Numbered from the stretch's first letter, positions 32,796-38,395 are shown. The stretch is 64,000 bases of DNA from Chlamydiia bacterium (GCA_030427725.1 JAUICV010000003.1:59573-123572), one strand, 5' to 3'. The notes: generated from the letters alone by a model not told the origin. A program made the numbers and translations.

Positions 32796-34169
32796 ATGAG
32801 CTTTTCTATTTCAAAAGCCGCTGAGTTAATCAGAGATAAACATATTTTTGCCCTTGAGGGCAATCTTGGGGGTCAAGTTTTGTTTGTGAAACAAAAAGAT
32901 CCTTTTTCACGAGTTCAAAAAAGACAAACAGGTAACCTCCTTCATAAATTGGCGGTAAAGGCATTGAATGAGGCTAATCCTTCAGCAAGTGAGCTGTCTG
33001 ATATTACTTATCAATATGTTAGAAGACATGTAGAGCCTTTGCATGGGAAAACCATGCAGTCTTATAATAGTTATGCTTTGCTTTTTAAAAATGCTATTTC
33101 TCCGACAAAGCTTGCGGACGTAGAACGCAAGCAACGATTTTCAGGATTTAATCCACTGACAAGTGATGAGCTAGATAAAGAAATTCTTTGGAAAGAGCTT
33201 ATTGATCAAAACAAGTTACATTATGCTATCAATACTTCTGGAGTTAAACTCGATTCATCAAAGTTATCGCTTCCAATTCAAGGAGAAATTGTTAGCCTTG
33301 AAGATCTAGAGATTTCTAAAGATGAAGCTAAGCAACAATTTGTTTGGTCAAATTCAGGGAAAGAGGTTTTTAGAACAAGCTACAATAGTAAGTTGGAAGG
33401 GTATCATTTCCATGGAATTTCTGGAATATTGCCTGGAACGTCAACAAAACCTTCAAGAGAGTTCCTCCACGCTCCATTTAGTAAAACAGATCCAAGTGGT
33501 GAGTACAAAGTTTTGATTTGTAGTGCGATAAATAATCCTGGTGTCCCGAGATTTATGGGACCTCACTCTTTTATAGGACTCGAAGATCCCCAAGGTAACC
33601 AAACCTATTATGGGCAAACGATGAACTCTTCCCTTCAGATGTCTGTAGAGAACCCAGATCGTTATAAAAGCTTACCAGCGACGACCTATATTAATACTGA
33701 AGTAAAAAAGACTATTACGAAGGAAAGCTTTGAGAAACTTCGAGCTGATTTTGAAAAAGATATGCTTGATGGATTACAGGGCTCTTCATACTTTAAAAAT
33801 AACTGCTCTGGATATGTTGTGAAAAAAGCGGCATCAGTGGGCATAAAGATTGAAGCGGAAGTTTCGAACACGGAGTGGCTTTATCTAAACTTTATTTATC
33901 TATTACCAAAATTTTTGGCTAAGCCGTTGAAGAGAGGATATGAAAGTTTACCGAGTTATTTTAGAAAAGCGCTACATTTTATAGCCTTTCCGTTCTATGC
34001 GGCTTCTGTAATTGCTAATTTAGTGATATGGTCATCTGGGTTTTTCTATAAAACCGTTCGTAAAGATATTTCACTTTTGGATATTTTCTTCAGACCATGG
34101 AGAGTTCATTCTAACCATCCGATTAAACTGTATGAGTGGCAACAAAAACAACTTAAAGGAGCAAAGTAA
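32796..34169 (+). CDS. Hypothetical protein with a permuted papain-like (His...Asn-Cys) domain
   Basis: PHSFIGL...YYG and YFKNNCSGYV followed by a hydrophobic segment; homologous to the C-terminus of the next gene; GAGGT RBS. Confidence 0.7.
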   Translation: MSFSISKAAELIRDKHIFALEGNLGGQVLFVKQKDPFSRVQKRQTGNLLHKLAVKALNEANPSASELSDITYQYVRRHVEPLHGKTMQSYNSYALLFKNAISPTKLADVERKQRFSGFNPLTSDELDKEILWKELIDQNKLHYAINTSGVKLDSSKLSLPIQGEIVSLEDLEISKDEAKQQFVWSNSGKEVFRTSYNSKLEGYHFHGISGILPGTSTKPSREFLHAPFSKTDPSGEYKVLICSAINNPGVPRFMGPHSFIGLEDPQGNQTYYGQTMNSSLQMSVENPDRYKSLPATTYINTEVKKTITKESFEKLRADFEKDMLDGLQGSSYFKNNCSGYVVKKAASVGIKIEAEVSNTEWLYLNFIYLLPKFLAKPLKRGYESLPSYFRKALHFIAFPFYAASVIANLVIWSSGFFYKTVRKDISLLDIFFRPWRVHSNHPIKLYEWQQKQLKGAK

Positions 34170-37100: not shown

Positions 37101-38395
37101 CCAAAAAACAACTGATTAAAGAGATTTCTAAGCTTGACCGTTTAGCTCTTCTGTTAAGAATTAAAATGGCTCAAGCTCAACGGTTAGAATCTGAAGAAGC
37201 GTTTGATGCCTTTAAGTGGATTTCTGAAAGGTTAACTCATTTGAATAAGGATGAAACAGATAGAAAAAAGGTTGTTTCTAGCTTATCAATGTTATACGAA
37301 ACTAAAATAGCAAGAGAGGATCTCTCAAAGTGGCTTTTAGAAAAAACATCCAGAGCGAGGAAAAATAAAACAGAGGAATACATCCTCGGTTCAAAAGAAG
37401 CGATTCTCTCATTTGTATTGCATCCACTTTCAATTGACTTTGTAAAAGATCTTAAAATCCATCGCAGCGTTTCAGCGTATAATCAAAAGCTTGAAGTTAG
37501 TAAAACAACAGGTGATTTAAAGATAAAAGTTAATGGCCGGTTTCAAAGGGTTGCTAAAGTTAAAGATAGCTACAGTTTTTTCCAAAATAGAATTGTAAAT
37601 AAGGAAGGAAAGGAAGTTGTATACACGGAAAGATCAGGTCTAAAAAATGGTACATTTGTAGACTGGGACAATAAGATTCCCGTCTTTCTAGATACAAAAA
37701 CTCCTAGAGAAAAACCTGCTTTAGAGATTAGAACGGTTTTAGGTAAAGAAAGCCATGCGTATATCAGGGTTTATGCGACAGATGGTAAAGTGTATAGCGT
37801 AGGAAAATTCTGGGATAGAGATGTTAATCTTCCAGGAATTGAAGGAGGGTTATTAAAAACGATTCCAGCTATGTTGTCAGTTGATCTTCATGAGTTCTTG
37901 CCAGAGGAATCTGATATTAAAGCTACAACTATTGATTTAACTGAAGATCAGTTTACAACGGTTATGAATGAGATCGTTGAAGTTCAAAAAAACTTCAGAA
38001 AACAAGAGGGTGGATACAACTTGATGAACGCAAACTGTACCGATTTTGTTAGACACATTGCGGGAAAAGTTGGGCTAAAAATTGATACAAAAATCAGCGT
38101 TTTCGAATATTTAACTTCAATCTCAAGAAAAAGACCTAAGCTTAGAAAGCTTCTTTATAAAAACAAATGGATTCGGTACGTATCTAATGTATTCTTATAT
38201 CCGATAGCTCTAGCAACAAACATGCTTTTATATATGCTAGGAGCTCATAAAGTTCGGGGAGAAGCGGGGCTTAGAAAAGCTAGGATCCTGAAATCTTGGA
38301 AAGATATTATCGATCCATTTTCTGGTTCTGTTGATCATCCACAAACCATCAGAACTTGGCAGGAAATCAGAGAAGAAACCTTAAGAAGTGCTTAG
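34169..38395 (+). CDS. Large multidomain protein: helical N-terminus, MGDG-synthase/UgtP-like GT28 domain, C-terminal permuted papain-like domain
   Basis: GT motifs WGGGHKAAA, ATD, GYPSRPEF, VVCGK, GF..D..MA.LM, TKPGGGTVAEA, PWE; C-terminal SHAYIR and YNLMNANCTDFV. Confidence 0.8.
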   Translation: METRSSAARPPSVCSILDESITKLGYKFHDAALPENELLSHVSWMNVEELSDAEKNTYEIKEIQPLVLIIQWLFEGIKNVIQTWWHKAEIQEENEVLLQCHFLKNNGHLSPKTFLELKKNIHDAKRFKELTNAEIDRLKESGFIDTKAYRAMKSLLVSERTKDVWIYVNTISVLNQLTDNIETVKELLGPKEALELYSTLESAYKTSIFENQASSKLQNLLARVQITLWMNSFAPEQDGMNREDSFVLKDLRRSLAKDDQKGFQEALKDFYEYHAETTSSPLQGYYYQEMAASLKNLINGNVFVHLSHALMTETYVNQWSQEFASLHKKILSLDDNSIDKEQLNQLKEKLSKLYSIFGHVLEGEKEFLSSDIFYSKVYGDLRQRWQEISDKLHQFNGGEISAHEMCGCINQKLAENASKPWPQTATTVLNASNNDRAFHSDEPLKKKVLSFTCTWGGGHKAAASALEQYLGKKNYHFTSVDLPQETLLSEDPLQKLLGGNFSIAKLHNTLCANKAFKTVEMIRKLGSKMGSTAICPTKRRLVMQRILMERPDVIFVNYSAHLDILLSVAEELGIPVVYQATDLHQTYDNWTIKPNSKHFKLLIPAADEKIWGSFKAPVGKDQVVNLGYPSRPEFIKDYSAEALDKIYEKYELPKDKKLVMMMNGALGSDYKTSQAKQIISQLRSGKYDDAHFVVVCGKSVDLFRKLKSELKRHNLEHKMTVCGFISDPEDMAKLMNVSQCIVTKPGGGTVAEALYTKLRMVLERGPKNGLPWEDFTCDWIENKGLGQGFRSTKGLIKALDAELSKPKSTIDFRPEVPQPKAYFDLVNQMIEAAEKDKDYFSKRKSWSEELSVPFYASPEAAKGYRIESAQIQLNQALKEGAFAKDFSISKEVERHLFELKPVALNFKNMKLEKAEKFSQVDSLLFTQKLTSQFESLISKDIDRLIPSKQSEVKLEKLLVMTSFFLKQMNLRFENGKISKKQLIKEISKLDRLALLLRIKMAQAQRLESEEAFDAFKWISERLTHLNKDETDRKKVVSSLSMLYETKIAREDLSKWLLEKTSRARKNKTEEYILGSKEAILSFVLHPLSIDFVKDLKIHRSVSAYNQKLEVSKTTGDLKIKVNGRFQRVAKVKDSYSFFQNRIVNKEGKEVVYTERSGLKNGTFVDWDNKIPVFLDTKTPREKPALEIRTVLGKESHAYIRVYATDGKVYSVGKFWDRDVNLPGIEGGLLKTIPAMLSVDLHEFLPEESDIKATTIDLTEDQFTTVMNEIVEVQKNFRKQEGGYNLMNANCTDFVRHIAGKVGLKIDTKISVFEYLTSISRKRPKLRKLLYKNKWIRYVSNVFLYPIALATNMLLYMLGAHKVRGEAGLRKARILKSWKDIIDPFSGSVDHPQTIRTWQEIREETLRSA

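Follow-up and report, generated by a model that had tools for sequence, protein, structure and literature searches.

The window analysed here is a 64,000-nucleotide stretch of Chlamydiia bacterium DNA (GCA_030427725.1 JAUICV010000003.1:59573-123572), and the subject of this report is a pair of genes within it, A and B, which combine a glycosyltransferase of family GT28 with two copies of a predicted permuted papain-like domain. We label this C-terminal domain of A and B the PAP domain. Both open reading frames (ORFs) lie on the + strand and share a single base in a TAATG overlap, as first annotated, and the sequence AAGGAG stands at 34156-34161, 7 nt ahead of the B start codon. Overlap and AAGGAG together suggest a typical translational-coupling layout. 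No terminator-like site was found on the + strand from 32873 to 38904, including between A and B, and a promoter scan gave 12 sites against 20.8 expected; neither scan is informative. The GC content of the A/B region, 0.345-0.358, is similar to that of the remainder of the window. The features of the pair are as follows.

32796..34169 (+): gene A, ORF of 457 aa; in the predicted model, a helical region (aa 1-150) and a beta region (aa 158-214) precede the PAP domain
33492..34166 (+): PAP domain of A, aa 233-457, with H257 (33564-33566), D288 (33657-33659) and N336-C337 (33801-33806)
33969..34037 (+): only strongly hydrophobic segment of A, aa 392-414; Kyte-Doolittle 19-mer maximum 1.83, helical in the model
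34167..34171 (+): TAATG overlap; A stop TAA at 34167-34169, B start ATG at 34169-34171, one base in common
34169..38395 (+): gene B, 1408 aa; N-terminal helical region, GT28, linker module and PAP domain (phmmer, hmmsearch)
34169..35488 (+): N-terminal region of B, aa 1-440; precedes GT28 in 11 other long relatives
35489..36688 (+): GT28 module of B (MGD1/UgtP-like GT-B), aa 441-840; GGGH loop His459 at 35543-35545
36689..37669 (+): linker module of B, about aa 841-1167; homologous to the N-terminal part of standalone family members of ~500 aa
37670..38386 (+): PAP domain of B, aa 1168-1406, with H1196 (37754-37756), D1239 (37883-37885) and N1289-C1290 (38033-38038)
38171..38248 (+): only strongly hydrophobic segment of B, aa 1335-1360 at a looser threshold (core 1341-1359); Kyte-Doolittle 19-mer maximum 1.63

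Paralogous C-terminal domains

Sequence comparison confirms that the last ~240 residues of A and of B are paralogous, with a similarity beyond chance. In a BLASTP comparison, A residues 140-362 pair with B residues 1096-1315 (241 columns, 20% identity, E = 0.007). This is weak by itself, and the relationship was therefore tested with profiles from which both A and B had been excluded. A profile of 19 B-clade domains scores A at 40.0 bits (E 2e-14), and a profile of 12 A-clade domains scores B at 69.5 bits (E 1.5e-23), compared with a top score of 12.5 bits among 400 shuffled A/B controls. The four motif blocks that the first-pass annotation had aligned by eye occupy the same columns in a 12-sequence MAFFT alignment, and the codon positions that it gave for the shared histidine (33564 for A His257, 37754 for B His1196) and cysteine (33804 for A Cys337, 38036 for B Cys1290) are all correct. 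Histidine and cysteine are kept in both proteins as it had said, and it overlooked a further invariant residue, an aspartate (A D288, B D1239).

Predicted fold of the PAP domain

AlphaFold2 models of the B PAP domain (12-row alignment; predicted local distance difference test (pLDDT) 81.9, predicted template modelling score (pTM) 0.81) and of whole A (50-row alignment; pLDDT 92.8, pTM 0.91) show both C-terminal domains with a circularly permuted NlpC/P60 (papain-like) fold, in line with the fold proposed at first pass. In the B model, in domain numbering, the histidine lies on strand 37-43 and Cys131 opens helix 131-140; in the A model, His257 lies on strand 257-263 and Cys337 opens helix 337-346. 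In both, the aspartate comes after the fourth strand, and the histidine precedes the Asn-Cys pair, which is the permuted order. The structural neighbours of the two models include permuted NlpC/P60 enzymes (Z scores):

TseH (6v98): B domain 12.3 (root-mean-square deviation 3.4, 136 aligned); A 11.7 (root-mean-square deviation 3.4, 137 aligned)
YiiX (2if6): B domain 7.5; A 8.3
DeSI (2wp7): B domain 6.8; A 7.2
MARTX RID (5xn7): B domain 6.6; A 6.4
CLN5 (6r99): B domain 6.5; A 5.8
Aichivirus 2A, 2A(H-NC) (7zv6): B domain 6.4; A 6.6
3kw0: B domain 6.3; A 6.8
PLAAT4 (7zot): B domain 6.0; A 5.7

RID, like IcsB, is a lysine fatty-acyltransferase; CLN5 works as a lipid transacylase; and the PLAAT/LRAT enzymes act through an acyl-thioester. 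PMC12994826 reports phospholipase activity for TseH in a liposome assay at pH 8.9 and cleavage of phosphatidylglycerol (PG) and phosphatidylethanolamine (PE) by Tox-Act1. A complex prediction of the A PAP domain (aa 222-457, 50-row alignment) with the B PAP domain (12-row alignment) returned a score of 0.00 and 'no answer', which is no evidence either way.

The PAP family

The PAP domain belongs to a large family with a nearly invariant set of putative active-site residues. A word-based search of 5.8 billion clusters yielded one further homologue each for A and B, and an exhaustive HMMER search with a 12-domain PAP profile yielded 1058 representatives (50% identity) at E 1e-3, 677 at E 1e-10 and 142 at E 1e-30. 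Most of them are 420-520 aa long and carry the domain C-terminally, and the few that are annotated are each a 'hypothetical protein' of Chlamydiota or Simkaniaceae metagenome-assembled genomes. Conservation was counted over 158 PAP instances in 153 stored proteins and is given here in B numbering:

Cys1290: 158/158
His1196: 156/158
Asp1239: 156/158, the other 2 being Glu
Gly1212: 156/158
Asn1289: 154/158
Gly1206: 154/158
Pro1391: 146/158
His1390: 66%

The histidine and cysteine, whose conservation in homologues had been named as a check on the fold, are thus kept in 156 and 158 instances. Among 50 full-length proteins, six positions are invariant (A H257, G267, G273, D288, N336 and C337), and the putative active-site residues are likewise invariant in the 12-sequence alignment. 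The terminal His-Pro motif read at first pass is better kept in its proline than in its histidine.

No Pfam or NCBIfam model covers the PAP domain in the copies searched, and gene A has no match in Pfam, NCBIfam or the PDB sequences. The sub-threshold Pfam matches of B, to Peptidase_C97/PPPDE, Lnb_N and LRAT, all centre on the Asn-Cys helix. Peptidase_C97 (PF05903; cut-off 29.2 bits) scores 17.0 bits with whole B and 20.0 bits with its domain alone, and leaves A unmatched. Lnb_N/DUF4105 (PF13387; cut-off 22.2 bits) gives 15.0 bits with the B domain (E 0.019) and is the Pfam model that matches most of the 12 domains (4/12, best E 6e-4, all sub-threshold), whereas LRAT (PF04970; cut-off 24.3 bits) reaches 13.8 bits (E 0.071) and 2/12 domains. 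Among the 50 full-length relatives, Peptidase_C97 touches 4 and Lnb_N 3, all below cut-off. TseH/DUF6695 was unmatched at E <= 1 in Pfam scans of A, B, the 12 domains and the 50 full-length members. By the cut-offs of these families, the PAP domain belongs to none of TseH, Lnb_N, PPPDE and LRAT. Among the candidate families first put forward, Lnb_N/DUF4105 and PPPDE are indeed the nearest sequence models and LRAT/HRASLS is not, while the nearest structure is TseH.

Searches of other kinds were less productive. Against PDB sequences, the domain profile reached PPPDE at E 0.19-0.25 and PLAAT at ~0.9, ranking below two unrelated matches at ~0.03, and a profile of the full-length, 50-protein type gave chance-level helical matches only (best E 0.2). 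For A, the ESM Atlas offered no more than leads, one of them a feature match at 0.85 in the TseH family test. A pattern search of genome contigs with protein B produced 19 pattern matches, 0 of them confirmed.

The GT28 module of B

The middle of B appears to be an active, divergent GT28 enzyme of the lipid (MGD1/UgtP) branch with an intact GT-B arrangement, judging from its homology and motifs. Residues 445-784 match NCBIfam PRK13609 (diglucosyl-diacylglycerol synthase) at E 8.4e-24 and 84.2 bits, compared with an equivalog cut-off of 500 bits; residues 445-835 match plant MGD1 (PDB 4wyi) at E 8.8e-13 over chain positions 5-386 of 408; and residues 623-769 match a processive diacylglycerol beta-glucosyltransferase (PDB 9wde) at E 2e-11. 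The full-length homology to MGD1 agrees with the GT-B fold expected of this region, and the MGD1/UgtP-type motifs reported at about 35500-36670 are present, as GGGH (aa 456-459), TKPGGGT (aa 743-749) and LPWE (aa 770-773). Pfam Glyco_tran_28_C scores 21.4 bits, below its cut-off of 22. As B is a divergent relative with a sub-equivalog score, donor sugar and acceptor are not transferable by homology.

K744, G746, G747, E752 and E773 are invariant among the 12 stored proteins with a GT28 module, and the loop histidine is present in 10 of the 11 proteins that cover the loop. The remaining protein, B-like P0056 (1413 aa), has GAGY, with Tyr replacing the GGGH-loop histidine, and its GT28 may be inactive or work differently. 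B His459 aligns with the GGGH histidine of MGD1 at chain position 19 of 4wyi, which we take to be MGD1 His155 on the assumption that the construct starts at residue 137. In PMC12022483, MGD1 H155A is described as inactive and the histidine is proposed to deprotonate the diacylglycerol hydroxyl.

MurG, another GT28 enzyme, was rejected as the identity of this module. B matches the MurG model TIGR01133 at 19.3-21.7 bits (E 4.6e-4; cut-off 250 bits), far more weakly than the UgtP/MGD1 models, and the genome holds a MurG candidate of its own (G000:C1:165822-166883), which scores 223.8 bits (E 1.5e-66), below the same cut-off.

The regions on either side of the GT28 module recur within the family. 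With phmmer, B aa 1-440 matches 12 of the 153 stored proteins, B included, and has no Pfam match and no usable ESM Atlas match; B aa 841-1160 matches 20 of the 153, again with B included, among them the standalone P0043, P0034, P0084 and P0069.

Linkage of GT28 and PAP across chlamydiae

Matches to the PAP profile occur in 150 of 401 sampled genomes of the order, spread over 96 of 216 genera, and in 105 of 301 genomes of a phylum-wide sample; the GT28 module of B is found in 112 of 400 genomes. No PAP match was found in any of 30 genomes of family f35 (1.0-1.2 Mb, 1-4 contigs), which suggests that the trait was lost in, or never gained by, that reduced lineage. We examined 19 loci (16 newly fetched) picked for close PAP and GT28 matches, annotating all ORFs with both hidden Markov models. 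Both modules are present in 18 of the 19, in the following arrangements.

Split pair (PAP gene, then N-GT28-PAP gene): G000 (the window) and G255 (450 aa + 1243 aa)
Triple fusion PAP-GT28-PAP: G020 (1774 aa), G073 (1805 aa) and G164 (1806 aa)
PAP-GT28 fusion, at a contig end: G097 (942 aa)
N-GT28 gene (768-973 aa), then one or two PAP genes: G017, G124, G048, G078 and G250
PAP, GT28 and PAP genes: G332
GT28 gene (836-838 aa) beside arrays of two to six PAP genes: G379 (six), G388, G234, G177 and G218
Interleaved cluster of two GT28 and four PAP genes: G202

Five more GT28-PAP neighbourhoods were recognised from coordinates alone (G397, G400, G266, G217 and G004). The two modules are thus fused or adjoining in at least 23 genomes in 11 families, and the survey of chlamydial architectures that had been suggested shows a recurrent linkage, in split and in fused form. 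Of the top 20 GT28 matches, 13 have a PAP domain fused to them or no further than 10 kb away; for a pair of unlinked genes in a genome of 2 Mb, the rough expectation is about 2%. Although relatedness means that the genomes are not independent of one another, 11 families are involved.

A tree of all 158 PAP instances (FastTree, LG+gamma, midpoint root, none dropped) separates the two copies. One clade, of 14 (support 0.99), unites A with seven A-like standalone proteins and every one of the six N-terminal copies from long proteins; the other, of 20 (support 0.88), unites B with eight standalone proteins and all 12 C-terminal copies. These clades point to two old, distinct PAP lineages that have stayed with GT28 through fusions and fissions.

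Among individual loci, the largest array seen is that of G379 (L021, G379:C13), with six tandem PAP paralogues of 539-585 aa at 2326-13431 (-) and a divergent GT28 gene of 838 aa at 13626-16139 (+). The 1805-aa triple fusion of G073 (L015, G073:C1) is flanked by an ORF of 616 aa with collagen repeats and one of 1017 aa with a eukaryote-type protein kinase domain (437-2284 and 7949-10999). The clusters of G177 and G218, two genomes of one genus, additionally contain PLD-like, LicD-family and alpha/beta-hydrolase genes: PLD-like (PLDc_2) and LicD-family genes lie between the GT28 and PAP genes at 4776-10223 of L024 (G177:C3) and at 5273-7931 of L025 (G218:C1), and a DUF818-like alpha/beta-hydrolase gene lies between them in G177. 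Another alpha/beta-hydrolase gene flanks the G332 cluster. No recurrent third partner was found at the GT28-PAP loci, where the other neighbours are resolvase, MFS, MotA/ExbB, kinase, collagen-repeat, TLC transporter, alcohol dehydrogenase and methyltransferase genes. In the window's own family, G001 has just two partial PAP matches (E 1e-16).

Hydrophobic segment and export

A and B each contain one strongly hydrophobic segment, as the first-pass annotation had noted. Both models show it as helical, after the Cys helix and ahead of a C-terminal strand and helix; in the B domain model it falls within helices 164-200. This closing strand-helix pair packs against the catalytic core at pLDDT >90 in each model, a packing that favours a re-entrant anchor in one leaflet over a full span. 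Across the family, 111 of 155 PAP instances have at least one hydrophobic 15-mer after the cysteine. Inc proteins have a bilobed hydrophobic domain of about 40-60 residues; the A/B segment, by comparison, is single and shorter, at 19-27 residues.

Hydropathy shows no hydrophobic N-terminal signal or transmembrane segment in A or B, which bears out the reported lack of a Sec signal, and a hydrophobic N terminus occurs in just 3 of the 153 stored family proteins. Signal-peptide-like hydrophobic N termini were seen in P0068 and in the G046 copy (L004, G046:C10, 228-1556, -); the latter has no hydrophobic segment after the cysteine and its match contains a TAG, and proteins of this type may be a Sec-exported or decaying sub-branch. 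One FHIPEP-family export-gate gene (SctV/FlhA-type; E 1e-222), the only one in the genome, occupies positions 1-305 (-) of the window and continues upstream (G000:C3:57895-59877). With this gate in the genome, type III export of A and B would be possible.

Comparison with known enzymes

TseH, a type VI secretion effector of Vibrio cholerae, is the nearest structure, at 12-14% identity to the PAP domains and without a sequence-level match. It is a soluble toxin of ~220 residues with an immunity protein. Unlike TseH, PAP has an inserted hydrophobic segment, a module of ~200 residues ahead of it and linkage to GT28, and its invariant acidic residue comes 31-43 residues after the histidine, compared with 17 in TseH. 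PLAAT enzymes use His-His-Cys as catalytic residues; in comparison with the LRAT/PLAAT (HRASLS) family, the third invariant residue of PAP is Asp and its anchor is internal to the fold rather than a C-terminal transmembrane helix. DeSI proteins, which are soluble, have SUMO or ubiquitin conjugates as their substrates; the PPPDE/DeSI family (Peptidase_C97; 2wp7, 3ebq) has no link to lipid enzymes, and its model scores PAP at 20 bits, compared with 29.2 required. Similar to PAP, the Bacteroides lipoprotein N-acyltransferase Lnb (DUF4105) combines a TseH-like permuted domain with membrane helices, and it has a Cys-dependent acyl transfer, five membrane-spanning helices and a domain in the periplasm (PMC11573676). 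In contrast to Lnb, A and B show a single hydrophobic segment and lack an export signal, and their genome retains a canonical Lnt. As in MGD1 (4wyi), UgtP/YpfP (9wde) and CAZy GT28, the catalytic GGGH histidine and the TKxGG...E nucleotide-sugar motif are kept in B; unlike in those enzymes, the GT28 of B sits within a protein of 1408 aa, between a helical region of 440 aa and a PAP module, an architecture that the literature searches showed for no known GT28 enzyme.

The permuted NlpC/P60 fold class and the GT28 family are already known. New are the PAP family itself, its inserted membrane segment, the position of the invariant aspartate and the conserved coupling to GT28 in split, double- and triple-fused forms. 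No description of the PAP domain or of the GT28-PAP architecture was found in the literature on chlamydial PPPDE, MGDG synthase, permuted NlpC or glycosyltransferase effectors, which, with the lack of Pfam and NCBIfam models for the domain, fits the first impression of an undescribed architecture.

Proposed function and alternatives

On balance, A and B probably form one translationally coupled, membrane-associated lipid module, in which a glycolipid synthase and Cys-His-Asp acyltransferases or phospholipases work on one membrane face. The activity, substrate and site of action of the module, on a bacterial or a host membrane, are inferred, in the following scheme. GT28, with His459 acting as the base, would move a hexose from a uridine diphosphate (UDP)-sugar to a membrane-lipid acceptor, either diacylglycerol or one similar to it. 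The PAP domains would take an acyl chain from a glycerolipid onto the cysteine as a thioester, and the chain would then go to water (phospholipase A) or to an acceptor (acyltransferase). One possible acceptor is a sugar or glycerol hydroxyl of the GT28-made glycolipid, and the products would then be acylated or remodelled glycoglycerolipids. Such acylation or re-tailoring of the GT28 product by the PAP domains is speculation by analogy with the two-step logic of other acylated glycolipids, such as Helicobacter cholesteryl acyl-glucosides and plant acyl-MGDG. As a re-entrant anchor, the hydrophobic segment would be embedded in a single leaflet, with all active sites facing the same side. Because Sec signals and N-terminal transmembrane segments are almost absent from the family, that side may be the bacterial cytoplasmic face or, after non-Sec (type III) export, the host or inclusion membrane. 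Glycosylation of diacylglycerol combined with acylation or deacylation of lipids had been suggested from the first; the recurrent GT28 fusion and synteny and the published lipid activity of permuted NlpC/P60 enzymes now lend it better support, and it keeps its conditional standing.

Several observations weigh against the lipid module. A Foldseek search of the models against the PDB, as first suggested, lists the structural neighbours given above, none of them at E <= 1e-3, the best being CLN5 (1.1e-2) and TseH (3.5e-2). All matches of the PAP domain to curated families lie under their cut-offs. Likeness of fold leaves the substrate open, and DeSI, an isopeptidase, and RID, a protein acyltransferase, are matched too. 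G036, G039, G044, G045 and G046 carry PAP genes with no GT28 relative detected, G014 has a tandem PAP pair with no GT28 beside it, and the A/B pair was not found in 3 other genomes of the same family that were searched (81-94% complete), so the PAP domain is not strictly dependent on GT28. The PLD/LicD context is confined to one genus. Finally, a single hydrophobic segment of 19-27 residues could also be a true membrane span.

The lipid module has to be weighed against three other explanations. That the resemblance of A to B reflects chance or composition, with C-terminal regions that are not enzymes, would suit the 20% pairwise identity and the BLASTP E of 0.007, and its probability is negligible: the cross-clade profiles score several-fold above anything in the shuffled controls, the family numbers 1058 related clusters, Cys, His, Asp and Asn are near-invariant, and two confident models, of A and of the B domain, share one fold. 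Chance resemblance was rejected on the cluster count, the residue conservation and the cross-clade profile scores. A more substantial explanation has the PAP domains act on proteins in the host cell, as DeSI/PPPDE-like isopeptidases or RID/IcsB-like lysine fatty-acyltransferases, with GT28 glycosylating a host target or lipid. DeSI and RID are indeed among the structural matches, yet the best of these is clearly TseH, with a lead of 4-5 Z units over both, the PPPDE score falls short of its cut-off, the linkage to a lipid-type GT28 is tight and repeated, and a membrane-inserting segment is predicted inside the PAP domain itself; we regard a protein-directed role as rather unlikely.

Envelope housekeeping is the third alternative, with PAP as an Lnb-like lipoprotein N-acyltransferase or as a peptidoglycan- or lipid II-directed NlpC/P60 hydrolase working with a MurG-like GT28. 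In its favour, Lnb_N is the Pfam model that matches most members, Lnb likewise joins a TseH-like domain to membrane helices (PMC11573676), MurG is itself a GT28 enzyme and B does match TIGR01133 weakly. Such a role is nonetheless very unlikely. The genome has a canonical Lnt (220 bits, above cut-off), on which PAP was rejected as an Lnt replacement, as well as a separate MurG candidate; B resembles UgtP/MGD1 far better than MurG; and A and B lack the N-terminal signal or transmembrane segment for periplasmic placement, which 3 of 153 family proteins have. The distribution is also patchy, with no pair found in the three same-family genomes searched and no PAP domain in the 30 genomes of f35, which points to an accessory system.

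Neighbouring genes

Directly upstream of A, at 32138-32608 (+), an ORF of 156 aa has no Pfam match and, by eye, a stretch of ~40 residues with two hydrophobic runs that resembles a chlamydial Inc-type membrane protein. A three-gene efflux operon, EmrAB-TolC-like, lies at 28023-32010 (+) and consists of an OEP outer-membrane factor, an HlyD-type fusion protein and an MFS pump. Downstream of B, an ORF of 361 aa at 39212-40297 (+) has a weak Exo_endo_phos (EEP) match (E 3.7e-6, just above cut-off) and could be phosphatase, nuclease or sphingomyelinase-like. An ORF of 893 aa at 43044-45725 (-) has as its sole match a C-terminal PIG-L domain (GlcNAc-PI de-N-acetylase, aa 659-805), which leaves about 650 N-terminal residues without a match. 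Five further ORFs of 495-714 aa have no Pfam match at E <= 1e-4: 57955-60099 (+), 13019-14908 (+), 49607-51157 (-), 47976-49463 (-) and 56338-57861 (-).

Implications

Environmental chlamydiae, which inhabit amoebae and other hosts, have to construct and sustain a vacuole membrane out of host lipids, and few of the enzymes with which they edit lipids are known. The PAP family extends an emerging rule that permuted NlpC/P60 enzymes act on lipids, and its coupling to GT28 yields a testable hypothesis, that of a glycolipid pathway with two activities, for a phylum that is difficult to study genetically. For biochemistry, the triple fusion, at about 1800 aa, is a compact natural starting point. 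A more far-reaching version, which we consider unlikely at present, is that GT28-PAP works as a lipid factory secreted into the host: once exported by type III secretion, it would be anchored by its re-entrant hydrophobic segment in the cytosolic leaflet of the vacuole, or of some other host membrane, where it would make a non-host glycoglycerolipid from host diacylglycerol and re-tailor the acyl chains with its two Cys-His-Asp acyltransferase domains. If that were true, the vacuole membrane would gain a bacterial lipid identity, and the arrays of PAP paralogues would be a diversified family of lipid-editing effectors.

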